Positions 6,196-64,000 of a stretch of DNA of 64,000 bases are shown one piece after another (position 1 is the first letter of the stretch; every line of letters begins with the position of its first letter). The position numbers and the translations under genes were made by a program. The stretch comes from an uncultured Gammaproteobacteria bacterium. GTDB lineage: Bacteria; Pseudomonadota; Gammaproteobacteria; JAURND01. The stretch is from assembly GCA_963813895.1 (NCBI GenBank), contig CAWFAS010000002.1:209410-273409 (forward strand). The letters run 5' to 3'. A model generated the notes under the pieces. It did not search any database. It was not told the DNA's origin and worked only from the letters and a program-made list of their open reading frames with translations.

Positions 6196-9090
6196 ATGAC
6201 TTCAGAAATACGAGACACAAAACGGAAAGGAGATAAAAAACAGGAGGATGTTAATAAAAATGAAGTGGGGAAAAGCTATAATAACAAGCAAGAGGGGGAC
6301 GCCACCCCAGCCCTAGATATTAATGATGATTGGGGTAATACGTCTGAGGATAATGCTAATAATAATAATGATGATGGGTGGGATGATGATCCTAATAACG
6401 ATAATTCTACCTCCCTAGATACTAATGGTCGGGATCGGGAAGAGCTTGATGAAGACTCTGATGACGAGGTTGATAACGATGGCGAAGAAATAATTAAAGA
6501 CAGCAAAAGCGAGGTGGAAGAGGTTAATAGTTCGAAGATTACATCAAATGACGAGGGCACAAGTAGTACAACTAATAACTCAGCGTCTGCTGTTCCCTCT
6601 ACGCAGGCTATTTCTCCTACGTCAGCCAATGCGGGACAGCATTTTTCTTCAGGTTCGTCCTCATCTTCATCCTCACAAACCAGCAGCTTACCGACAAAGT
6701 CTGGATCAAGTTCACCAATTAGCGATGAAAAAGAAAATCAGAATAATGAAGAAGCGGACTTTCTTACGCATAAGCTCCTTGCTGACGAAGGCCTCGCACA
6801 AGCCCAATATAATTTAGGACTTTGTTATCTAAGTGGTAAGGGTGTACCGCATGTGGATGAATTAGAAGCGGTGCATTGGTTTGAGAAGGCTGCCGAGCAA
6901 GACCATGTGGACGCCCAATATGATTTAGGCCTGTGTTATCTCAATGGTAGCGAACTAGTGGCAGAGCGAACAAGGGTAAAGGCAGAACTGGCAGGGGTAG
7001 CAATGACAAAGGAAGGAATGGCAGTAAATTCGTTTACGTCAGCTGCCGACCGAGGCCATGTGGGCGCTCAATATCATTTAGGCCTGTGTTATTTAAATGG
7101 TAATGGTGTAGCAGTAAATAAAGAAGAAGCGGTACGTTGGTTTTATAAGGCTGTCGAGCAAGGGCATGTGAACGCTCAATATCATTTAGCTCTGTGTTAT
7201 TACAATGGTAATGGTGTAGGAGTAAATGAAAAAGAAGCGGTGTATCGGTTTGAGAAGGCTGCCAAGCAATACCACGCGGACGCCCAATATCATTTAGGCC
7301 TTTGTTGTCTAAATGGCGAGGGTGTAGCGAAAAATGAAAAAGAAGCGGTGGAATGGTTTAAGAAGGCTGAGCGGCAAGGCAATGTGAATGCCCGCGCTTA
7401 TTTAGGCTTTTGTTATGAATATGGTAAAGGTGTAAAGGCGGATATAAAAGAGGCAGGGGAATTTTATCGAAAAGTGATCATTAGTAAGGATGAAATAGCT
7501 GAAGAAGCGCTTCTTAATGTGGCCGCTCTTTTTCCAGCCAATGATAAAGAAGCTAAGGAAAAAAATATTGTTGTTAAACATTTTCCTACAGATGTGGAGT
7601 ATATCGGAACAGGGAATCCTATGGCCAGTGCTTCGGCATACGGCTTTTTGAGCCTTCAGGAGATGAAAGACAGTGCTTCAGTTTCTAAACTATTCCATAC
7701 ATCTCTAGAAACAATAAGGCTTAAGAGGTTAAAAGTGGCCGCTGCTAATGGGAATTCAGAAGCTCAATATAACTTAGGCATATACTATGAGAACGTTAAG
7801 AAAGTTGATCTGGCTATTGGCTGGTACACGTTAGCTTATAATCAAGGTCATAATAACGCCTCGCGTAAATTGAGCAAGTATTACGAATACGGTATTGGTG
7901 TAAACAATAAAAAGGAAGCCATACGTTGGTGCAGGTTAGCTGCCAATAAAGGCAATGCGGCGGCCCAATATTATTTAAGCAGTAATAGTGACTCTCCTAG
8001 AGAATGCCTACGTTGGTTGACTTCTGCTGCCAACCAAGGCTATATGGAAGCCCAATACGCATTAGGCATTAAGTATGAAAGTTTGCTATTTGGGGTGGAT
8101 AGAGTAGCAGAGGCAGTAGATTGGTATACGTTAGCTGCCTCACAGGGCCACGTGGAAGCCATGTATAGATTAGGGCATTGTTACGAACATATTGGTGTAG
8201 TTAAGAATACCCGGGAAGCGTGGCAATGGTATTGGTCAGCTGCCGAGAAAGGCCATAAAAAGGCTAACGAAGATTTATCTCGTTTAACAAGTACGGATGA
8301 AAAAGTAACTACAAAAAGTGTTAAAAGTGTTAACAGCGCGAGCGATCCTTTAAAAAAGCCTGATAAGATGAATGTTGATGATTCAGACGTTAATAAAAAC
8401 AGCGTGGAAGAAAGCTATAAGCCTGACTTACTTTTTTTAACAGAGTGGGACGATACTGAGGGGGAGGACACGTTTGATGACGAGGATAAAGAAATAGACA
8501 GCAAAAACGAGGCTGAAAAGAGAGTTACTAGTTCGAGGATTACATTAAATAACGGGGGCACATTAAATAGTAGTACAAATAATAACTCAACGCCTGCCAC
8601 CTCCTCTACGTCGGCTAATATTCAGCAGCGAGGTTTTTTTTCAAACTCTTTCACACCCTCATTCACATCTTCGTCAATGGTCAGCTCACAAGCAGAATCC
8701 ACATCTTCGTCTTCGTCAACCGTCAGTTCACATAGCAGCCCTTCTTCTACCAGCAGCCTTGCTTCCTCAGCTTTTCAAGCTGTATTTGCGAAGCCAATGA
8801 CACCAGAAACTAAAAAAATTAACAATACCTCTGCTATACAATTGTTCAATCGTTATAAACCTATCAATATATCAGGCAAAGTGCCGACGAACTCACCATC
8901 TGTTGCTAGCCCTCCTACTTTACCAACAAATCCAGGATCAGAAAAAAAGCGGAGTGCTAAAGGTAAGGGAAATTCTGTTACTACAGAATCAGAACTATCT
9001 AATACTACAGAACAAGAACTACCTAATACTCCAGAACCAGAACTATCTAATTCGTCGTCTTCATCATCAACATCGTCGCTATCTTCCTAA
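6196..9090 (+). CDS. Sel1-like repeat protein with acidic and Ser-rich termini; candidate effector
   Basis: About 11 repeats of AQY.LG.CY..G.GV....EAV.WF.KAA.QG in two blocks; GAGG RBS before ATG 6196. Confidence 0.9.
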   Translation: MTSEIRDTKRKGDKKQEDVNKNEVGKSYNNKQEGDATPALDINDDWGNTSEDNANNNNDDGWDDDPNNDNSTSLDTNGRDREELDEDSDDEVDNDGEEIIKDSKSEVEEVNSSKITSNDEGTSSTTNNSASAVPSTQAISPTSANAGQHFSSGSSSSSSSQTSSLPTKSGSSSPISDEKENQNNEEADFLTHKLLADEGLAQAQYNLGLCYLSGKGVPHVDELEAVHWFEKAAEQDHVDAQYDLGLCYLNGSELVAERTRVKAELAGVAMTKEGMAVNSFTSAADRGHVGAQYHLGLCYLNGNGVAVNKEEAVRWFYKAVEQGHVNAQYHLALCYYNGNGVGVNEKEAVYRFEKAAKQYHADAQYHLGLCCLNGEGVAKNEKEAVEWFKKAERQGNVNARAYLGFCYEYGKGVKADIKEAGEFYRKVIISKDEIAEEALLNVAALFPANDKEAKEKNIVVKHFPTDVEYIGTGNPMASASAYGFLSLQEMKDSASVSKLFHTSLETIRLKRLKVAAANGNSEAQYNLGIYYENVKKVDLAIGWYTLAYNQGHNNASRKLSKYYEYGIGVNNKKEAIRWCRLAANKGNAAAQYYLSSNSDSPRECLRWLTSAANQGYMEAQYALGIKYESLLFGVDRVAEAVDWYTLAASQGHVEAMYRLGHCYEHIGVVKNTREAWQWYWSAAEKGHKKANEDLSRLTSTDEKVTTKSVKSVNSASDPLKKPDKMNVDDSDVNKNSVEESYKPDLLFLTEWDDTEGEDTFDDEDKEIDSKNEAEKRVTSSRITLNNGGTLNSSTNNNSTPATSSTSANIQQRGFFSNSFTPSFTSSSMVSSQAESTSSSSSTVSSHSSPSSTSSLASSAFQAVFAKPMTPETKKINNTSAIQLFNRYKPINISGKVPTNSPSVASPPTLPTNPGSEKKRSAKGKGNSVTTESELSNTTEQELPNTPEPELSNSSSSSSTSSLSS
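8979..9050 (+). repeat. Intragenic 24-bp tandem repeat x3
   Basis: TACT(A/C)CAGAAnnAGAACTA(T/C)CTAA x3, encoding TTESELSN/TTEQELPN/TPEPELSN. Confidence 0.8.
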
Positions 9091-12855: not shown

Positions 12856-13250
12856 TGATACAACCACATCAAATGAAAGGTTAGGATCGCGTATTCAAGA
12901 CAATTTCCGAAGGAATACTTTTTAACCGCTTCAATTTTGTTATACATATAGCGCGCCTCGTTTTCCGATAGGAAAAAACTATTTATTATTCTTATTGATC
13001 GAACATCCGTTACACCTTTAAAGATGGCGACAGATTTTTCCAATAGTAATTTATTATTTTCGGGATCAGTGCTACTTTTAGCAATAAAAGATTTAACTTT
13101 TTTTCTAACCGCTAAAAATAAAGCCATATCTGGATCTTTGGAGACCTGGTCAGTGAACACAGATTTTAAATCTTCTTTTTTTGATTCGTTTTTAAAAAAG
13201 CGATCGTGAATTTGCGATGCTTTATTTTCTCTGGGCGTGTGATCTGACAT
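12780..13250 (-). pseudogene. Probably truncated papain-fold/deamidase-like protein
   Basis: MSDHTPRENK...KYSFGNCLEYAIL; shortly after GNCxExA the frame runs antisense into the ankyrin gene. Confidence 0.45.
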
Positions 13251-55141: not shown

Positions 55142-55987
55142 TTATCCAAGAGACAAATTATTATGAATTAATCTAACGGGATCCACCTGGTTTAATGTAT
55201 AAAAATGTAAGCCTTGGGCTCCCTCAGATAACAACCTCTCACACAATTTGGTTACAATTTCCACCCCCAATGCTTGAATAGAGCTATCACTACTAGCATA
55301 TACTTCCAAACGTTTACGCAGCCACAAAGGAATTTCCGCGCCACAACTCGCTGAAATCCGCATCAATCTAGCATAGTCACTGATAGGCATAATTCCGGGT
55401 ATGACAGGAATGTTGATCTCTAATTTATGACAACTTTCCAAAAAGCGGGCGTAGGCATCACTATTAAAAAAAAATTGCGTAATAGCGCTGTCAGCTCCCG
55501 CTTCAACTTTGAGTTTAAAATTTAATAAGTCCTCAGTGCTACTGCTCGCTTCAGGGTGAAATTCAGGATAAGCCGCGACAGTAATATGAAAATGATTTCC
55601 TGATAATTTACGAATGTGATGAATTAGATCGCTGGCATAATTAAAATCTGAAACTACTTTACCCTTATCCGTAACCAGATCGCCTCGTATAACCACCAAC
55701 TGCTTGATGCCAAAATTAATATATCTTTCTAAGATCTGCTCTAGACGTTCTGCTGTCATATTGACACAAGAAAGGTGTGGAACGGCCACAATATTATTTT
55801 TAACCAAGTTGCGCACCGCAACTAAAGTTTTCAACTGCGATGCGCCAATAGCCCCAAAGGTCACTGAAAAAAACCGCGGGTCGAGGTTAGTCAACTGCGA
55901 ACAAGTATCGCTGAGCTTACGGAAGCCATTAAGCGTTTTCGGTGGGAACACCTCAAAGCTTACTGGAATCTTTTGCTTATTACCCAT
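55142..55987 (-). CDS. metF: 5,10-methylenetetrahydrofolate reductase
   Basis: SFEVFPPK, SVTFGA, RGD, AAYPEFHP, ITQFFF, LHFYTLN. Confidence 0.93.
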   Translation of the reverse strand: MGNKQKIPVSFEVFPPKTLNGFRKLSDTCSQLTNLDPRFFSVTFGAIGASQLKTLVAVRNLVKNNIVAVPHLSCVNMTAERLEQILERYINFGIKQLVVIRGDLVTDKGKVVSDFNYASDLIHHIRKLSGNHFHITVAAYPEFHPEASSSTEDLLNFKLKVEAGADSAITQFFFNSDAYARFLESCHKLEINIPVIPGIMPISDYARLMRISASCGAEIPLWLRKRLEVYASSDSSIQALGVEIVTKLCERLLSEGAQGLHFYTLNQVDPVRLIHNNLSLG

Positions 55988-55989
55988 AG

Positions 55990-58329
55990 CTATACTTCTC
56001 GCGAGGGCAATTCTTCCAGCGAACCATTGGTCTCCTTATATTTCGCTCTGAATAATTTCGCTGCATTAACCATATTAGTTAACGCTTGCTCCACTTCTGG
56101 CCAATTGCGGGTTTTCAAGCCACAATCCGGATTCACCCATAGGCGCGCCAAGGGTACATAGCGGATTGCATTTTCCAGCTGAGTGACAATTTCCTCTTTT
56201 GAAGGGATGCGGGGTGAATGAATATCATAAACACCCGGTCCAATCTCATTAGGATAGGAAAAGGATTCAAAAGCCTTTAACAATTCCATTTCCGAACGTG
56301 AACTTTCAATGGTGATCACATCTGCATCTAGGTTCGCAATAGAATCAATTACATCATTAAATTCTGAATAGCACATGTGTGTGTGGATCTGTGTTCCATC
56401 TTCTACGCCACTTGCGGCAACTCGGAAGCAGTGGACAGCCCAATCCAAGTAATGCTGCCAATGATTTTTGCGCAACGGTAATGCTTCACGAAAAGCGGGT
56501 TCGTCGATCTGAATCACATTAATACCGGCCTTTTCAAGGTCGGTTACCTCATCTCGCAATGCCAAAGCTATTTGTAATGCGGTCGCGGAATAAGGTTGAT
56601 CGTCACGCACAAAAGACCAGGCCAAGATAGTAACCGGACCGGTTAACATCCCTTTTACCGGACGTTTGGTTAGGCTCTGCGCATACTTAATCCAATCTAC
56701 GGTCATAGGTTGCGGACGAAAGACATCGCCATAGATAATCGGAGGTTTAACACAACGCGAACCGTAGCTTTGTACCCAACCGTTACTAGTAAAAGCAAAT
56801 CCCTGCAACAATTCACCAAAATACTCCACCATATCATTGCGCTCAGCCTCTCCATGCACCAATACATCCAGATCGAGTTGCTCCTGCTTTTTGATCACTT
56901 CGGCTATCTGTTCATGGATTTTTTGCGTGTAAGTAAAAGCATCGATTTTACCTGCTTTAAACTCTTGTCTAATAATACGAATTTCTTTGGTCTGCGGGAA
57001 TGAACCAATAGTGGTAGTCGGCAGCAGGGGCAATTTTAATGCTTTGTGTTGGACCTGTGCGCGTTTAGCATAGACGTTTTTACGCTCAGCGTATTGTTTG
57101 GTTAACCCGGATATGCGTTGTTGCACTTGAGCATTATGAATACGCGCAGAATGCTGGCGTGATTGCAATGCCTGCTGATTAACTGCTAAAGCTTGAGAAA
57201 AACTCTCCGCGCCTTTATTCAAAATTTTGGCTAATAGCGCCACTTCATCGACTTTCTGTTTGGCAAATGCTAGCCAGCTTTTGAGCTCAGCATCCAGCTT
57301 GTCTTCATTATCCAAATCAACAGGAACATGCATCAATGAGCTGCCGGAAGCCACCCATAACCTGGGACCGAGAATTTTTTTAGTTTCCTGGAGGGTATGT
57401 GATAGTTTGGTTAAATCCGCTTTCCATATATTTCTGCCGCTGATAACACCCGCTGAGAGAATTTTGTCTTGTGGAATTTGTGCAGCTAATTGGGTCAATT
57501 GTTCGGGATTTGCCGAGAAATCTAGATGAATACCTTGAACGGGTAACTGTTTTACAATAGCGAAGTTATCTTCCACGGCACCAAAATAAGAGGCAACAAG
57601 TGCCTTTGTCTGTTTAAAATCTAGGTGTTGATATGCTTCAAGAAATGCAGCTTGCCAATCTTTCGGTAGGTCCAAAATCAAGATAGGTTCATCAATTTGT
57701 ACCCAGGATATTTTTTTCGCATTGAGCTGGCCAATAATTTCCTGATATACGGGTAATAGTTTTTTTAACAACGCTAATTTATTGAAATCTTTACCCTTAG
57801 TTTTACCAAGCCACAAATAGGACAGCGGTCCAAGTATGACTGGTTTCACGCGATGGCCAGCAGCACTGGCCCGATCGATCGCATTAAATAAGTAGTCTGT
57901 AGCAAGATGGAATGTCTGCTGTTCGGTAAATTCAGGCACAATATAATGGTAATTAGTATTGAACCACTTTGTCATTTCACAGGCTGTGGTTTCTTTAACT
58001 TTAGGTGCCTGGCCACGTGCCATACAAAAAATGGTGTTTAAATCAACTTTACCACCCTTATATTCAAAACGCTCTGGAACAACTCCCAGCATAGCGCTGG
58101 TGTCCAATACATGGTCATACCAGGTAAAGTCACCCACAGTAACATAATCCAGTCCTGCATCAGCCTGAATTTTCCAGTTTTGCTCTTGGATCTGCTTACC
58201 TACTGCTTCTAGTTCTGCTTGAGAAATTTCTTCACGCCAATAAGATTCAACGGCTTTTTTAGCCTGGCGGTGACTGCCGATTCTTGGGAATCCAAGAATA
58301 TGCGATGGATGATGATTTGCTTCAGTCAT
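55990..58329 (-). CDS. metE: Cobalamin-independent methionine synthase
   Basis: LGFPRIG, TKWFNTNYHY, PTTTIGSFPQT, HTHMCYSEF, VNPDCGLKTR; start 58329 or 58344. Confidence 0.96.
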   Translation of the reverse strand: MTEANHHPSHILGFPRIGSHRQAKKAVESYWREEISQAELEAVGKQIQEQNWKIQADAGLDYVTVGDFTWYDHVLDTSAMLGVVPERFEYKGGKVDLNTIFCMARGQAPKVKETTACEMTKWFNTNYHYIVPEFTEQQTFHLATDYLFNAIDRASAAGHRVKPVILGPLSYLWLGKTKGKDFNKLALLKKLLPVYQEIIGQLNAKKISWVQIDEPILILDLPKDWQAAFLEAYQHLDFKQTKALVASYFGAVEDNFAIVKQLPVQGIHLDFSANPEQLTQLAAQIPQDKILSAGVISGRNIWKADLTKLSHTLQETKKILGPRLWVASGSSLMHVPVDLDNEDKLDAELKSWLAFAKQKVDEVALLAKILNKGAESFSQALAVNQQALQSRQHSARIHNAQVQQRISGLTKQYAERKNVYAKRAQVQHKALKLPLLPTTTIGSFPQTKEIRIIRQEFKAGKIDAFTYTQKIHEQIAEVIKKQEQLDLDVLVHGEAERNDMVEYFGELLQGFAFTSNGWVQSYGSRCVKPPIIYGDVFRPQPMTVDWIKYAQSLTKRPVKGMLTGPVTILAWSFVRDDQPYSATALQIALALRDEVTDLEKAGINVIQIDEPAFREALPLRKNHWQHYLDWAVHCFRVAASGVEDGTQIHTHMCYSEFNDVIDSIANLDADVITIESSRSEMELLKAFESFSYPNEIGPGVYDIHSPRIPSKEEIVTQLENAIRYVPLARLWVNPDCGLKTRNWPEVEQALTNMVNAAKLFRAKYKETNGSLEELPSREV

Positions 58330-58359
58330 GCTGTTGTTCCTCATGTGTTATTAAATAAG

Positions 58360-59481
58360 TTAGATTGCCTGCTCCAAATCACTGATAAGATCTTCAGGGT
58401 CTTCAATACCAACTGAAACTCTCACTAAATCTGCAGCAAATTGCCGTTGTTCTGCAATAACCGACGCATGTGACATGACACAAGGCAGGCTAATCAGGCT
58501 TGTTAAACTGCCAAAACTGACCGATTTTACGAATAATTGGGTAGATTGCACCAGATTATGAGATAACTTAGCTGAGGCCGTAGTAAAACTAATCACAGTA
58601 CCACCCCCAGTAGCTTGCCGTTTTTGAATTTCACAGCCTGGATGCGTTGCTAACGTAGGATAATAAACCTGTTTAATTTGCGGATGGTTTTGTAAAAAAA
58701 TGGCTAATTTTTCGGCGGTATTTTGCTGTCGTTCCACACGTAAACCCAACGTTTTCAATCCTTTTAGTAGTAACCAGCATTCAAATGGCGCAAGCGCGCT
58801 GCCTTCGGCGTTCTGTATAAATGCCAGCTGGTCAGCAAGATCAGTATTATTCACTATTATTACACCAGCAGTCACGTCACTGTGTCCAGATAAATGTTTA
58901 GTTGCGGAGTGAATGACAATATCCGCCCCTAGCAACAATGGCTGCTGTAGCCAAGGCGATAAGAAAGTATTATCAACTACCAGTAAAGCCTCATGCTGGT
59001 GCGCTAAATTCGCCAATGCGGCTATATCAGAAATTTTCTGCAACGGATTAGATGGGGTCTCGATCAGAATTAAACGGGTTTCGGGTCGCAAGGCACGGGC
59101 TACAGCTGCGATATCGGTGGTATCGACCAAAGAATGATGCAGACCGCGTTGTGGTAAGCGCTGTGATAATAAGCGATGCGTGCCGCCATATAAATCATCA
59201 CAGGCAATAATATGATCACCACAGGATAATAATCCAGTAACTGCATTAATTGCTGCCATACCGCTGGCAAAGGCAAACCCAAAGTTCCCACTCTCGAGTT
59301 GAGCAACTTGTTGCTCAAGTATGCTGCGTGTAGGGTTACCGCTGCGACTATAGTCATATTTATCTGCACCTTCTATTGATTGCAATGCAAAAGTTGCAGT
59401 TTGATAAAGGGGTGTGCAATTGGGACGATGGGGATCCCCTGGATTGGGATCAAAGTGCACTAACTGTGTCGAGCGCTTCAT
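58360..59481 (-). CDS. PLP transsulfuration enzyme, probably cystathionine beta-lyase
   Basis: YDYSRSGNPTR, SGMAA, ETPSNP, DNTF, HSATKHLSGHSD. Confidence 0.8.
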   Translation of the reverse strand: MKRSTQLVHFDPNPGDPHRPNCTPLYQTATFALQSIEGADKYDYSRSGNPTRSILEQQVAQLESGNFGFAFASGMAAINAVTGLLSCGDHIIACDDLYGGTHRLLSQRLPQRGLHHSLVDTTDIAAVARALRPETRLILIETPSNPLQKISDIAALANLAHQHEALLVVDNTFLSPWLQQPLLLGADIVIHSATKHLSGHSDVTAGVIIVNNTDLADQLAFIQNAEGSALAPFECWLLLKGLKTLGLRVERQQNTAEKLAIFLQNHPQIKQVYYPTLATHPGCEIQKRQATGGGTVISFTTASAKLSHNLVQSTQLFVKSVSFGSLTSLISLPCVMSHASVIAEQRQFAADLVRVSVGIEDPEDLISDLEQAI

Positions 59482-61237
59482 GATGTTTACCTTTAGTTTT
59501 AATATTCAGCAAATTAGCCTGATGACTAAATGACAAATCAAGAAGATCAGCAAATACTGCCTCTGCAGTCGGCCAACGGCCTGCTCCCTTGCCATGCAAA
59601 TGTATGACTTGATCATCCAGTGTTTCAATCAATATTGCATTATTAGCACCAGGAACTCCCGCCAGAGGATGTTCAAAATGCAAGGCAATAGGTCTAATAT
59701 CCGCATGAATCTTGCCGTTATTTAATACACAGCTGGCTACTAGTTTTATATTATTCCCAAGGCTATGCTGCGCACGGAGATTTTTTTCACACACATCCTG
59801 AATTCCTTGCACTGCAATCGTGTCAGGGTCGCGACCAAAGGCGAAACGCGAAATAATGGTCGCTTTTTGGGCTGCATCTAATCCTTCAATGTCAAAGCTG
59901 GGATCAGCTTCAGCAAACCCATGCGATTGCGCAACGCTAATAGCATCAGAAAAAGTTTTTCCTTCTTTAATTTTTTCCAGAACAAAATTACAAGTGCCAT
60001 TCAGTATTCCTGTTACCGATTGAATTGCAACTTGGGGGTTCTGATGTTGAATGGATTTCAGAATTTCCAAAATCGGCACAGCACCCGCAACAGCGGCTGA
60101 ATAATACAGCCGGACATTATTTTCATCAGCTAACTGAGATAGATCTAGACCGTGAGCGGCAATCAAGGCTTTATTGGCAGTGACCACATGACGCTTGTGT
60201 TGCAATGCTAAAGTAATTAACTGTGCTGGTCTTTCAACCCCGCCAATTAACTCGATGACCACATCACATTCTCGCAGCATTATTTCATTCAAATTATCTG
60301 AAACCAATCCAGGAGGCGCATCATGATGCTGATGTTTGGCTATATTTTTTACCACGACACCTACTACATCAAATAATTGTTTATTGGCTGCCAGGTGTTT
60401 ATATACCCCTAAACCGACGGTCCCCAGACCCAGCAGGACCACTTTCAGCCTTCTAGGAGGCTGTTGCACTGAGGTCGCTAGCAACGACGCTTCTTCGCCC
60501 ACTAGGGTTTGATTGATATGGGTTAATGACTTAACAATAAACTGGAAATTTTTATTTTGAGCAAATTTGACTGCCTTATGTTGAATGACTTCATAGGAGG
60601 TTTTTAGACAATCATCAAAAGTAATACACTCAAAACGCTTGGCACCTGGCGCATATTCATTAGGGTCTTGATCAAAAATACCAGCCGTATCTTTATAAAT
60701 AATACATTTTTTGGCATTTAACACCCAACCCGCAAATAAGGCAGTGTAATCAGAACCCCCACGTCCTAATAATGTGACTTCCGAAGTGGCGTCGCAACCA
60801 ATAAAGCCAGGGATAACTAGCACAGAATAATTTTCAAATAGCTGCTGGATTAAAGTAGTATCTAATCCCGCTGGATCAGCATTCAATATCGATCCTTGTG
60901 TTTTTAAACAACGATGATCTAATTTCTTGGCTTTAATTCCGGCACGATCCAACCCGATAGTAAACAAGGAGGCCGCGCTAATTTCTCCAGTTGCTAACAG
61001 CGTTGCATATTCCTGCGGTGGCAAAGTAAGGTTTTCCTCACCCATTAATTTCCGAGTTTCTTTAACTAAATTATCAGTGGTATTACCTATAGCCGAAACG
61101 ACCGCCAATACTTTATAGCCATTGCGTAGATGCTGATAGACTGCATGGATAGCATCTGGGATTGCTTCTACTTTTGATAATACCGAACTACCAAATTTAA
61201 CCACCACCAGATTCTGAATTTTTGCTTGTGGGGTCAT
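59450..61237 (-). CDS. Aspartate kinase-homoserine dehydrogenase fusion without ACT domains
   Basis: VVKFGSSVL, LGRGGSDYTA; GLGTVG, VVTANK, GILNGTCNF, GFAEADP, GKGAG..PTA; 595 aa. Confidence 0.88.
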   Translation of the reverse strand: MTPQAKIQNLVVVKFGSSVLSKVEAIPDAIHAVYQHLRNGYKVLAVVSAIGNTTDNLVKETRKLMGEENLTLPPQEYATLLATGEISAASLFTIGLDRAGIKAKKLDHRCLKTQGSILNADPAGLDTTLIQQLFENYSVLVIPGFIGCDATSEVTLLGRGGSDYTALFAGWVLNAKKCIIYKDTAGIFDQDPNEYAPGAKRFECITFDDCLKTSYEVIQHKAVKFAQNKNFQFIVKSLTHINQTLVGEEASLLATSVQQPPRRLKVVLLGLGTVGLGVYKHLAANKQLFDVVGVVVKNIAKHQHHDAPPGLVSDNLNEIMLRECDVVIELIGGVERPAQLITLALQHKRHVVTANKALIAAHGLDLSQLADENNVRLYYSAAVAGAVPILEILKSIQHQNPQVAIQSVTGILNGTCNFVLEKIKEGKTFSDAISVAQSHGFAEADPSFDIEGLDAAQKATIISRFAFGRDPDTIAVQGIQDVCEKNLRAQHSLGNNIKLVASCVLNNGKIHADIRPIALHFEHPLAGVPGANNAILIETLDDQVIHLHGKGAGRWPTAEAVFADLLDLSFSHQANLLNIKTKGKHHEALDTVSAL

Positions 61238-61240
61238 AAA

Positions 61241-62485
61241 TTAATCTCCGCAATGTAAAAAAGCTTGCTCAAAATCTTTGATAATATCTTCTGGGTTTTC
61301 GAGTCCCACTGATAAACGAATCAAACCATCGCTAATGCCAATAGCACGTCGCTGTTCAACAGGGACCGGGCCATGAGTCATGGAGGCGGGATGGGTGATT
61401 AAAGTTTCTACAGATCCTAGATTTTCAGCCAAAGAACATAAACGCACAGCCTGCATTAATTTAATCGCCTGTTCATAACCCCCTTTGACTTCAAATGTCA
61501 GTAAGCCACCGTCGGCCGCTTGTTGACGCTTAGCTAATTCGTATTGCGGGAAACTATTAAGGCCGGGATAAGTCACCTGCTCTACTTTTGGATGACTATT
61601 GAGATAATTCGCAACCAGCAACGCATTGTGGGAATGTTGCTGCAAACGTATTTGTAGCGTTTTTACACCTTGCAATGTCAACCAGGCATTAAAAGGGGTT
61701 TGAATGGAGCCAACGGCATTTCGCAGGTAAATAAACCTTTCTACCAATGCAGGATCTTTCGCCAATAACGCACCGCCTACTGTGGCATTATGGCCATCAA
61801 TATATTTTGTAGTTGAATATAGAATAATATCTGCACCTAATTTAAAGGGTTGCTGTAGGGCGGCAGTTAAAAAAGTATTGTCTACAGCTAACAGAATTTT
61901 TTTCTCACGTGCCACTTGGGCAATCGCTTGAATATCAGTCAACTTTAGAGTGGGGTTGGCTGGTGTTTCAATAAAAATAAGTTTGGTATTGGCCGTAATG
62001 GCTGATCTGACTTTAGCGGGATCCGCCGTATCGACGAAGCTGGTTGAGACCCCGAATTTGATCAAAACTTCTCGCAGTAGCCGCACCGTACCACCATACA
62101 CAACGTCAGAACATACTATATGATCACCACTTTGCAACAAGGTTAGGCATAAGGCCGTGGTCGCTGCCATTCCTGTGGAAAAACAAACGGCCCTTTCCAC
62201 TTCATCAAGAGCGCCCAGGTTTTTTTCTAATGCCAGCACGGTAGGATTGGCACTGCGGGAATAGGTATAACCTTTATGTACTCCAACAGCCTCTTGAACA
62301 TAAGTAGTCGTTTGAAAAATCGGTGTCAAAATGGCGCCCGTCGTTGGATCGGGAGATATCCCCGCGTGGATACTGCGCGTGCTAAATCCATACTCATCAA
62401 CTGTATCTACAGTCTGGTGGTGGTTATTCTGCTGCTGCAGATCAGGAAGAATTTTTTCTCGGGTTGACATAGCTATCATTCTCAC
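61241..62485 (-). CDS. PLP transsulfuration enzyme, probably cystathionine gamma-synthase (MetB-like)
   Basis: YTYSRSANPT, TGMAA, ETPANP, STTKYIDGHN, HPASMTH; start among 62470/62479/62485. Confidence 0.82.
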   Translation of the reverse strand: MRMIAMSTREKILPDLQQQNNHHQTVDTVDEYGFSTRSIHAGISPDPTTGAILTPIFQTTTYVQEAVGVHKGYTYSRSANPTVLALEKNLGALDEVERAVCFSTGMAATTALCLTLLQSGDHIVCSDVVYGGTVRLLREVLIKFGVSTSFVDTADPAKVRSAITANTKLIFIETPANPTLKLTDIQAIAQVAREKKILLAVDNTFLTAALQQPFKLGADIILYSTTKYIDGHNATVGGALLAKDPALVERFIYLRNAVGSIQTPFNAWLTLQGVKTLQIRLQQHSHNALLVANYLNSHPKVEQVTYPGLNSFPQYELAKRQQAADGGLLTFEVKGGYEQAIKLMQAVRLCSLAENLGSVETLITHPASMTHGPVPVEQRRAIGISDGLIRLSVGLENPEDIIKDFEQAFLHCGD

Positions 62486-62530
62486 TATTTAGTTTTTGGG
62501 CGCAATAAACCACTTGGGGTTCAAGCCCTT
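62485..62530 (-). promoter_or_regulatory. Possible minimal SAM-V/SAM-II-like pseudoknot at the first gene's start
   Basis: GGGC-UUGAAC...UUAUUGC-GCCC-AAAAA-CUAAAUAG. Confidence 0.3.
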
Positions 62531-62562
62531 AAATAAAGTTTATCTGGAAATTTTTTGTTATG

Positions 62563-62626
62563 AAAAAAGCCTGCTTTAACTGGCCCTGATAGGTTTAACT
62601 ACGCAGGCCCAGGATAAAGCAGGCTT
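62563..62626 (-). terminator. Intrinsic terminator (attenuator) in the met operon leader
   Basis: Minus strand AAGCCTGCTTTA...TAAAGCAGGCTT-TTTT: 12-bp perfect stem, inner CTGGGCCTG/CAGGGCCAG stem, U6 tail. Confidence 0.85.
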
Positions 62627-62736
62627 CACATATGCATTAAAGAGGGAAAGAAATTAATAGAATAATGAGGAAAATACTGTGGAGTTTTTTTTGGGAATAT
62701 TTTATAACTACAATTATTTTTTGGACAAGCTTTCAT
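62626..62736 (-). CDS. Putative 36-aa leader peptide MKACPKNNCSYKIFPKKTPQYFPHYSINFFPSLMHM
   Basis: GAGGT SD 8 nt before ATG 62736; the only internal Met codons are 34 and 36; TGA overlaps the first base of the terminator stem. Confidence 0.65.
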   Translation of the reverse strand: MKACPKNNCSYKIFPKKTPQYFPHYSINFFPSLMHM

Positions 62737-62743
62737 AAAGTAA

Positions 62744-62806
62744 TACCTCAACACGCTTTAGCAAAATTTATACAGCGCCTGCAATCTGAAACTCAAATCG
62801 GCGCTA
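62744..62806 (-). ncRNA. SAM-II riboswitch
   Basis: UAGCGCC-GAUUU-GAGUUUCAGA-UUGCA-GGCGCUG-UAUAAAU-UUU-GCUAAA matches the SAM-II pattern (P1, GAUUU, UUGC, AUAAAU, GCUAAA); lies upstream of met genes. Confidence 0.85.
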
Positions 62807-62820
62807 CCACTAATCTGGAA

Positions 62821-62849
62821 ATACTAACACAAATATGCTTGTCATGCAA
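62821..62849 (-). promoter_or_regulatory. Sigma70 promoter of the met leader
   Basis: TTGCAT-N17-TAGTAT with extended -10 TG, about 15 nt upstream of the riboswitch. Confidence 0.7.
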
Positions 62850-62903
62850 CCGAAGTTGTAGTGCAAGGATTTATGCAAGCCATAGTAGAATTATCAACAG
62901 ACC

Positions 62904-64000
62904 TTAGTCGCTCCCACATCTCCCTCCCGGTGCAGGTGCAGGTGGCGGTGTGTTGCCTGGAGCCCGTGTTTTAGGAATCCAGCCGGGGAGTGGTGTCGCA
63001 AGGCGTTCTTTAATTTCCTTAATAGTATTTACTTTCCCAGCATGAACATCCCTAAGATGGGCGGTTAATCTTGGATTTATTTTCTCTTGAGTCTGCGTCA
63101 GTAAAGTCCTTATCGTTGCCCCCTTTTCTGAAGACATAAGGGAAGAAAACCCTGCTGGCCCCACTTTTGCATTAAGGGCGTTTGCACTTGCGAATATTGC
63201 TCTGCTCAGTATTCTGTAATCACCCCTGCCCTTACCATTATCATCAGTCATTTGGAAATTTTTTTTGGCTTGCTTTAAAGTAGGTAAGATTTCGTCTCGA
63301 ATGAATGAGCCAAGTTTCTTATTATTATCTGCATGATTTTCTAGATCTGATATAAGAGATTTGAAGGCTTTTAAATTTTTATCTACTACAACCTTATGCT
63401 CAGATACCTTTCTATGGTAAAAACCTGGGTCTGCTACTTTTAGCATTTCCATCAATGGCTTGATAATATTCTTCTCAGCCTCTTTATCCGTCGACTTTAT
63501 TCCACTCAATTTAAGCGTATTTACGCTGTCACATATTCCGCTTCTAAGTATTGCTGCCGAGGGTTTTTTTACAAAATCTTTTCTCGCTTGTTCTAAAATA
63601 TTCGAAATCGCTACCACGCGTAATGCATATGGGTCTTGCTCCTTACCCTTATTTTCCTGCACTCTTGTTTCAGAATAATTTTGCAGCTTTGATAAAAGGG
63701 AATTGAAGGAGCCTAAAAGCGCCATATCTTGAGTATCTTTCTGTTTTTTTTCTTTTTCAAAAGACCTGCTTATAGTGTTCAAAGTATTTTTCAGCTGATC
63801 CGTTATAAGCCTATTGCCTGAAGGAACTTGATTCGTGCCAGGCAACTTAAAATCAGGAGGAAAGTTTTCAATAGACCCTAAAATTCTGTTAATTCCCTTA
63901 AAAAGTTCCTTAGGATCACCCGTTGCTTTATAACTTTCTTTTGAGGTTTTTAAAACCCCTGAACTCCATTCCATAAATTTAGCATAATTTTCAAACTTCT
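62904..64000 (-). CDS. Hypothetical helical, Lys-rich protein with Pro-rich tail (5' end probably outside the window); candidate effector
   Basis: Frame stays open from 63974 to the window edge; ends PPPAPAPGGRCGSD. Confidence 0.7.
   Translation of the reverse strand, partial: KFENYAKFMEWSSGVLKTSKESYKATGDPKELFKGINRILGSIENFPPDFKLPGTNQVPSGNRLITDQLKNTLNTISRSFEKEKKQKDTQDMALLGSFNSLLSKLQNYSETRVQENKGKEQDPYALRVVAISNILEQARKDFVKKPSAAILRSGICDSVNTLKLSGIKSTDKEAEKNIIKPLMEMLKVADPGFYHRKVSEHKVVVDKNLKAFKSLISDLENHADNNKKLGSFIRDEILPTLKQAKKNFQMTDDNGKGRGDYRILSRAIFASANALNAKVGPAGFSSLMSSEKGATIRTLLTQTQEKINPRLTAHLRDVHAGKVNTIKEIKERLATPLPGWIPKTRAPGNTPPPAPAPGGRCGSD

Follow-up and report, generated by a model that had tools for sequence, protein, structure and literature searches.

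A conserved leader ORF between a SAM-II-type aptamer and an intrinsic terminator upstream of a gammaproteobacterial met operon: a putative ribosome-relayed switch

The window analysed here is a 64,000-nucleotide (nt) stretch from the genome of an uncultured gammaproteobacterium. On its minus strand it carries a five-gene methionine (met) operon, preceded by a leader in which a putative promoter, a class II S-adenosylmethionine riboswitch aptamer (SAM-II; SAM, S-adenosylmethionine), a short upstream open reading frame (uORF; ORF, open reading frame) and an intrinsic terminator follow one another. The parts of this leader, their order, their conservation and the geometry by which the stop codon of the uORF adjoins the terminator stem were established here. 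We infer that the aptamer binds SAM, that SAM lowers initiation on the uORF, and that translation of the uORF suppresses the terminator.

The leader of a five-gene met operon

The elements had been described in a first-pass annotation of the sequence and were all found at their minus-strand positions. They are listed below with the operon genes.

62821..62849 (-): putative sigma-70-type promoter, TTGCAT-N17-TAGTAT, read from the sequence (-35 element 62849-62844, -10 element 62826-62821)
62741..62814 (-): SAM-II-class aptamer, gammaproteobacterial variant (SAM_alpha 27.6 bits; model R1 78.2 bits)
62745..62749 (-): Shine-Dalgarno (SD) sequence GAGGT of the leader ORF, core 7 nt past GCUAAA and 8 nt before the AUG
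62626..62736 (-): leader ORF of 36 codons plus TGA (ATG 62736-62734, TGA 62628-62626), frame conserved
62629..62637 (-): terminal methionine (Met) codons, Met34 at 62637-62635 and Met36 at 62631-62629, with His35 between
62563..62626 (-): intrinsic terminator, a long composite hairpin with U6 at 62568-62563, called from fold energy and conservation
62471..62562 (-): 92-nt spacer from the terminator to the first structural gene
55142..62470 (-): five-gene met operon, from the ORF list and Pfam
61241-62470 (-): operon gene 1, a Cys_Met_Meta_PP enzyme (Pfam)
59450-61237 (-): fused aspartokinase-homoserine dehydrogenase (Pfam)
58360-59481 (-): second Cys_Met_Meta_PP enzyme (Pfam)
55990-58344 (-): cobalamin-independent methionine synthase, MetE (Pfam)
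55142-55987 (-): methylenetetrahydrofolate reductase, MTHFR (Pfam)

The assignment of the downstream genes to methionine metabolism was borne out by Pfam for all five. They are tightly packed, with gaps or overlaps of 2 to 32 nt as counted from ORF coordinates.

For comparison, the window genome is referred to as G000. G001 belongs to the same genus and G002 to another genus of the same order; the three form one family with two genera. G048 belongs to a neighbouring order. A covariance model (R1) was built from seven related aptamers and matched four of the nine genomes of the window's order (G000, G001, G002 and G003). All 206 genomes of the neighbouring order were pattern-searched for the aptamer followed by AGGT. 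Leaders were aligned four ways (G000, G001, G002, G048), and six uORF-bearing leaders were compared in total by including G041 and G090. The metagenome pattern scan gave at least 120 loci, of which 110 among the matches listed were analysable, the sequence of 10 others ending too soon past the aptamer. In 401 genomes sampled from the class the aptamer pattern was matched 15 times, and a phylum sample contained 30 classical SAM_alpha loci from 22 of 151 genomes. Four DNA sequencing runs yielded near-identical low-depth contigs and unrelated aptamers only, with no new leader variants.

The SAM-II aptamer and its usual downstream terminator

SAM-II is represented in Rfam by RF00521 (SAM_alpha) and RF01726. 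In a cmscan of positions 60000-64000, SAM_alpha was the sole riboswitch match (62814-62741, 27.6 bits, E 0.0022), and it was also the sole hit genome-wide (E 4.3e-4). The SAM-II pattern noted in the first pass was thereby recovered as the only riboswitch candidate and scored 78.2 bits with R1, while its Rfam score stayed below the gathering cut-off of 36 bits. Relatives scored 35.4, 32.2, 27.7 and 24.4 bits with SAM_alpha, and the aptamer on contig L150 scored 32.8 bits with the long-loop model, for which the cut-off is 44; SAM_alpha was the best riboswitch match wherever relatives gave one. Since the relatives too fall below the cut-off, the gammaproteobacterial branch appears to be under-scored by a model trained on alphaproteobacterial-type sequences.

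The hallmarks of SAM-II are present: a P1 helix (62805-62800 pairing with 62779-62774), a loop with the nucleotides GAUUUG and UUGC (GAUUUGA...AUUGC) and the 3' pseudoknot strand GCUAAAG (62762-62756). P1 covaries in the neighbouring order (GCGCC/GGCGC versus GCGUC/GACGC). The strands of pseudoknot helix P2 are invariant in every sequence gathered and give no covariation signal either way. The alignment of seven aptamers contains 35 invariant columns. A DNA search of 41 related genomes recovered the aptamer segment, conserved at 78-90%, from seven members of the class, and scarcely any other part of the leader. Its conservation places the window aptamer above chance; by these sequence features it is a gammaproteobacterial SAM-II variant and would be expected to bind SAM. 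In the absence of the pseudoknot, the loop helix GAUUUGA/UCAGAUU is predicted to extend P1 (62774-62806, -), a possible ligand-free competitor in G000 and G001.

The genes behind related aptamers encode a Cys_Met_Meta_PP enzyme in G002, MTHFR in G048 and aspartokinase-homoserine dehydrogenase in G041. At most loci of the neighbouring order the aptamer precedes an ABC-ATPase-like gene, read as metN from its MIEL... start alone. The aptamer at these loci (L153-L175 and others) is a SAM-II variant in which a small hairpin is inserted after P1 and ahead of the 3' strand, and in most loci shown it stands about 70-250 nt before the ABC-ATPase gene. R1 matched 110 of the 151 genomes sampled from the order of G041.

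The usual design is an aptamer followed by a direct terminator within 40 nt. This was seen in 100 of the 110 analysable metagenome leaders among the matches listed, in 9 of the 15 pattern matches of the class sample, and within the window's own order in G003. In several such leaders the 5' arm of the terminator is complementary to the 3' strand of the aptamer (read by eye). This is the usual antiterminator logic, noted for SAM-II in general by Corbino et al. (PMC1273637). The window leader resembles this common gammaproteobacterial type in its aptamer sequence, including the 35 invariant columns, and in a terminator arm motif (CCUGCUUUA / UAAAGCAGG) that appears homologous. It differs in that about 110 nt encoding an ORF are interposed where the common type has a direct terminator and an RNA antiterminator.

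The window-type layout was found at none of the 110 analysable metagenome loci among the matches listed, and in the 401-genome class sample only in G000 and G001. A pattern scan of genome contigs returned three loci, namely the record of G002 itself, G041 (with a uORF) and one without a uORF. No second copy of the G048 layout was found among 41 relatives of that genome.

The leader ORF and the terminator at its end

The uORF proposed in the first pass, with the SD GAGGT and 36 codons from the ATG at 62736, stands at its claimed position. Alignment of orthologous leaders upheld its conservation, with the ending L-M-x-M-UGA (one-letter code) in three genomes and a juxtaposition of stop codon and terminator across two genera. 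Among aptamer-bearing genomes of the window's order, three of four have the uORF; so does one of the 206 genomes of the neighbouring order, of which three have the aptamer followed by AGGT. Its length is 36 codons in G000, 31 in G001, 33 in G002 and 37 in G048, and the differences are multiples of three nt. In G000, G001 and G002 an SD and an ATG open the frame that ends in L-M-x-M-UGA, and the stem begins 0-2 nt past the stop. The G048 uORF runs into a terminator homologous to that of the window, upstream of an MTHFR gene. In all six uORF-bearing leaders the SD core lies 5-8 nt before the AUG, and the SD follows GCUAAA by 2-7 nt (2-4 nt in G041 and G090, 6-7 nt in the others). The uORF was never seen without an aptamer among the leaders examined.

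From the start to the last codon, the DNA of the uORFs is too diverged for a match in the DNA search, and the peptides can still be aligned. Identity to the window's peptide is 48% in G001, 44% in G002 and 23% in G048. Synonymous differences include TGT/TGC, CCC/CCG, CAT/CAC, AAT/AAC, AAA/AAG and TTA/TTG, and the other two frames over the same span contain 0-4 stops. Under a Markov null, the probability of an open frame is 0.08-0.42 per genome and that of a first stop within one codon of the observed place 0.018-0.037 per genome; these values cannot simply be multiplied because the genomes are related. The four aligned leader peptides had no exact match among about 15 billion protein sequences. 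On this evidence the uORF is a conserved SD-led frame, above chance, that may be translated. Its RNA is A/U-rich and predicted to be unstructured, with 20 C and 9 G (C/G 2.2); such C-rich RNA, if untranslated, could be a loading site for Rho.

These data bear on two further explanations. The nascent peptide might sense a small molecule and arrest its ribosome on the UGA, which would block the terminator in the manner of a TnaC-like sensor; TnaC itself acts by a stalled ribosome against Rho (mentioned in PMC5021804). The 44-48% identity over two genera, which includes an N-terminal K-x-N/H-C and central F-P and F-F, and the UGA stop in three family members would suit such a peptide. We regard it as very improbable, given that the G048 peptide is only 23% identical with another C-terminus and stop, that no known arrest motif was recognised in the leader peptide, and that a signal of low methionine readable in the ribosomal tunnel is hard to name.

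Alternatively, the terminator could be largely constitutive and yield a small riboswitch RNA, as proposed for RA1/RA2 of Sinorhizobium meliloti metA, with expression set mainly at the promoter and the uORF being a translated but non-regulatory passenger or a chance frame. The Markov probability of an open frame leaves room for this, and a strong, apparently unregulated terminator behind the SAM-II SD is described for S. meliloti metA (PMC9373788). Against it stand the low probability of a stop at the observed place and the retention of the frame, its end at the stem and its Met codons in four genomes of two orders despite divergence and indels. We consider this explanation improbable.

The terminator was found as claimed, with a 12-bp (base pair) stem that starts at the A of the TGA and a U6 tail, and proved both strong and conserved. 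The outer stem pairs A62626-A62615 with U62578-U62567. The hairpin has a predicted fold energy of -38.8 kcal/mol (z -7.03), and none of 200 shuffled sequences folded as well. In all four aligned genomes the outer stem is kept, with two compensatory pairs, and there is no variation in the segments ATG, CCTG-TTTA and TAAA-CAGG. In G000 and G001 the UGA shares a base with the stem, the first one; in G002 the stem opens 1-2 nt past the UGA, and in G048 the stop codon lies inside the 5' arm. A consensus terminator scan missed the window hairpin because its loop rule of 3-8 nt excludes a long composite stem. By fold and conservation the terminator is above chance. Rfam matches to Srn266 and mir-1788 on the hairpin were far below their cut-offs and were discarded as chance.

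An RNA-only riboswitch acting at a distance was also considered, in which the free UAAAGCG of the aptamer would pair with the terminator 5' arm (UGCUUUA) at low SAM and act as an antiterminator, as in the common gammaproteobacterial design, and the uORF would be incidental or serve, for example, as a shield against Rho. It is suggested by the prevalence of direct terminators among the metagenome leaders, by the complementarity of their arms to the aptamer 3' strand in several cases, and by the UAAAGC/GCUUUA complementarity kept in G000 (-7.9 kcal/mol) and G048 (-8.3 kcal/mol). This pairing was the sole candidate in the search for a conserved antiterminator hairpin, which found none. It amounts to -3.8 to -8.3 kcal/mol versus -14.7 to -23.0 kcal/mol for the outer terminator stem, is nearly lost in G001 and G002, and spans about 110 nt; moreover, it leaves the SD-led frame, the in-frame indels and the similarity of the peptides unaccounted for. 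Its probability is accordingly judged to be low.

Upstream of the aptamer, the promoter sequence and its 17-nt spacer agree with the first-pass annotation, and the promoter did not rise above chance. It was not listed by a consensus scan, and TTGCAT matches TTGACA at 3 of 6 positions. By eye, a TTGCAT/TTGACG-N17-TAxxAT/CAGAAT arrangement before the aptamer recurs in G001 and G002. A promoter-like site inside the uORF was dismissed as chance (1 found versus 1.2 expected in the consensus scan). Between the putative -35 element and the stop of the upstream ORF lies a 37-nt stretch (62864-62900, -), which is single-copy in the window's genome and has 84-92% matches in G007 (three contigs), G001 (another contig), G008, G005 and G013. 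The upstream ORF itself, on the same strand, has 356 amino acids (62904-63974, -) and no Pfam family. Downstream of the terminator, the spacer at 62471-62562 had no match in G001 in the DNA search, in which only window 62814-62716 (query 87-185) was matched.

Ribosome loading as a putative link between aptamer and terminator

We propose that the riboswitch controls ribosome loading on the uORF and that a ribosome at the end of this ORF covers the 5' arm of the terminator, a reading to which we give an even chance. In the OFF state, the SAM-bound pseudoknot, which ends 6-7 nt before the SD, would lower loading of the 30S subunit; the uORF would remain untranslated, the 64-nt hairpin with its U run would form, and transcription would stop at about 62563. 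At low SAM the uORF would be translated and the first ribosome would arrive at the last codons or the UGA. With the UGA overlapping the first base of the 5' arm, the mRNA channel of this ribosome would keep that arm enclosed during synthesis of the 3' arm by RNA polymerase, so that no hairpin forms and the five met genes are transcribed.

A precedent for the last step comes from the terminator tR2 (PMC4824070). When the distance from a stop codon to tR2 was shortened from 28 to 5 bp, termination dropped from ~90% to <10%, an effect that required translation of the ORF. Estimates cited there have the first ribosome catch RNA polymerase within ~100-200 nt. By coordinates, the U run of the window lies about 170 nt from the AUG, a distance that may explain why uORF length is held at 29-37 codons.

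The terminal Met codons may add a second input. A ribosome short of Met-tRNA (Met transfer RNA) would linger at the invariant Met codon adjacent to the stop and mask the arm. The M-x-M-UGA ending is shared by G000, G001 and G002. The second AUG is invariant in all four aligned leaders and is separated by 4 nt from the CCUG of the terminator arm, likewise invariant; the single internal Met codon of G048 aligns with Met36. One AUG is thus kept across two orders, and the terminal Met codons and the juxtaposition of stop and stem across two genera. Internal Met codons are confined to the last five codons in five of the six uORFs, and G041 has none. The UGA stop is shared by the three family members; G048 has a different C-terminus and stop. 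Footprint arithmetic was done with the figures quoted in PMC4824070 and a downstream footprint of 15 nt. A ribosome with the UGA in its A site would cover ~12-15 nt downstream, which is the whole 5' arm, and with Met36 in the A site it would cover the first 6-8 nt of the arm. From these sequences, sensing of Met-tRNA by the terminal codons is plausible, though we hold it tentatively and think it clearly less probable than not. The two terminal Met codons recall the two Trp codons of trpL.

Several observations weigh against the proposed relay or its parts. Neither the window aptamer nor any relative of its group reaches the Rfam gathering cut-off, and the layout is carried by four genomes only, three of them of one family. 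The SD lies outside the pseudoknot, whose strand ends 6-7 nt before it. In constraint folding with a 45-nt extension, SD accessibility without and with ligand was 0.08 versus 0.54 in G000 and 0.93 versus 0.31 in G002, and no consistent SAM-dependent change was found across genomes. A terminator that lies no more than ~100 bp into an ORF can take effect while the ribosome is still catching up (PMC4824070); a polymerase pause may therefore be needed, and no pause element was found by folding, the only approach used. As to the Met codons, the first-pass claim that a ribosome on either of them covers the 5' arm holds for Met36 and the stop, and fails for Met34, which in the A site reaches only to ~62626 and leaves the G-C part of the stem unmasked. 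In three of four folds the AUG beside the stem can also pair with CAU or CGU beyond the U run, and its conservation may therefore have a reason at the RNA level. Met sensing further rests on four related leaders. With the stall at Met34 off target, one Met codon in G048 and none in G041, the Met input is the weakest link.

The first-pass annotation had the aptamer loop pair with the SD, and this did not hold up: across all six leaders the duplex energy is between -2.4 and -5.4 kcal/mol, a value matched by 26-72% of shuffled loops. The duplex of the window can be drawn with seven pairs, four of them G-U (-2.5 kcal/mol), and is equalled by 54% of shuffled loops. The position of the SD outside the pseudoknot and the lack of consistent occlusion in the models favour two devices in series, in which the uORF and terminator form a stand-alone ribosome-mediated Met attenuator and the aptamer acts separately, for example on mRNA stability or on the promoter-proximal RNA, without gating uORF initiation. 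Conservation of the terminal Met codons fits this too, as does the stabilisation of RNA by the S. meliloti SAM-II aptamer (PMC9373788). However, the SD is found within 2-7 nt of GCUAAA in each of the six uORF leaders, no uORF occurs without an aptamer among the leaders examined, and in the same S. meliloti source a SAM-pocket mutation raised ribosome association. We therefore consider two separate devices unlikely.

Among published systems, the metA leader of S. meliloti (Scheuer et al. 2022, PMC9373788) comes closest to the proposed relay, through the terminator that follows its SAM-II riboswitch. It likewise has a SAM-II aptamer, an SD, an AUG and an intrinsic terminator before the real met coding start; the terminator was validated, the SD was needed for expression, and mutation of the SAM pocket raised both ribosome association and mRNA beyond the terminator. 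The differences are that AUG1 is in frame with the gene and immediately followed by the terminator, and that neither a separate uORF with its own stop nor terminal Met codons are described there. The authors proposed a standby SD acting on AUG2 and left the terminator unexplained (PMC9373788).

Attenuation of the pyrBI/pyrE type (PMC4824070, PMC5021804) shares an ORF that ends at or in an intrinsic terminator and a ribosome that blocks the hairpin from behind RNA polymerase; an ORF ending at or inside such a terminator is found in G000, G001, G002 and G048. The signal there is the speed of RNA polymerase, set by uridine triphosphate, and not a riboswitch on the ribosome-binding site of the ORF, and there are no cognate regulatory codons. 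The Salmonella mgtA leader combines an Mg2+ riboswitch with a proline-rich uORF, mgtL, whose regulatory codons report an amino acid, and so has two inputs to termination (PMC5021804). In that system termination is Rho-dependent, uORF translation selects between RNA stem-loops, and the riboswitch does not act on the uORF's ribosome-binding site.

In trpL, hisL, pheL and leuL, a short SD-led peptide with codons for the operon's own amino acid near its end is followed by an intrinsic terminator before the operon. The window leader shares the SD-led frame, the cognate codons near its end and the terminator behind it. The classical attenuators switch among 1:2, 2:3 and 3:4 hairpins, with termination favoured by a ribosome that has reached the stop; in the window leader, by contrast, the search for an antiterminator hairpin found none, and that role would fall to the ribosome. 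The first-pass annotation knew of no described Met attenuator with this layout, and in the open-access papers searched here neither a Met leader-peptide attenuator nor a riboswitch-gated leader ORF at a terminator was found. The parts are known (SAM-II, ribosome-suppressed terminators, cognate-codon leader peptides and the mgtA composite); the combination and its logic are a new variation on them. A bolder reading is that this is a true methionine attenuator, the first leader-peptide device to read Met-tRNA, in series with a SAM riboswitch. A single ribosome would then combine two signals, SAM when it initiates and Met-tRNA when it reaches the final sense codon, in one decision at an intrinsic terminator. 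We regard this as possible rather than probable.

Related leaders show further arrangements. G041 (L145 1567-1750, +) has the aptamer, an SD and a 32-codon uORF with neither terminal Met codons nor a terminator. Codons 23-33 of this uORF are predicted to form a long hairpin (-34.6 kcal/mol, z -3.43) with the SD of the gene downstream, which encodes aspartokinase-homoserine dehydrogenase, and translation of the uORF would unmask the main ribosome-binding site, another on-switch via a uORF. In G090 (L150 1321-1490, -) the aptamer and SD precede a uORF of 29 codons with the ending L-M-C-stop. A weak fold (z -1.14) is possible between the 3' part of this uORF and the SD and start of the gene that follows, for which no Pfam family was recognised. 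On metagenome contigs L080 (~13026-13110, +) and L123 (~7721-7805, +), a SAM-II aptamer and SD are followed by a 21-codon ORF that spans an intrinsic terminator, with a Met codon 3 nt ahead of the stem; the stop codon of this ORF lies 6 nt short of the ATG that opens a metN-like ABC-ATPase gene. Finally, 6 of the 30 classical SAM_alpha loci (L221, L224, L234-L237) have an SD-like motif and an ATG or GTG at most 4 nt before the terminator 5' arm, in an S. meliloti metA-like layout with ORFs of 18, 18, 23, 23, 28 and 488 codons. A ribosome on the start codon at these loci would cover the arm, and occlusion of a terminator arm by the ribosome may be a wider SAM-II output that includes S. meliloti metA and these six alpha-type leaders.

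In the usual teaching, a riboswitch controls either a terminator or a ribosome-binding site. The conserved anatomy of the window leader suggests a third route, in which a translational riboswitch admits a ribosome and this ribosome passes the decision on to an intrinsic terminator. Such a relay, if real, would be a simple natural conversion of translational into operon-wide transcriptional control and a methionine counterpart of the trp, his and leu attenuators. It would also account, in a way that can be tested, for the terminator that follows the SAM-II riboswitch of S. meliloti metA, and would supply a compact two-input part for synthetic biology.

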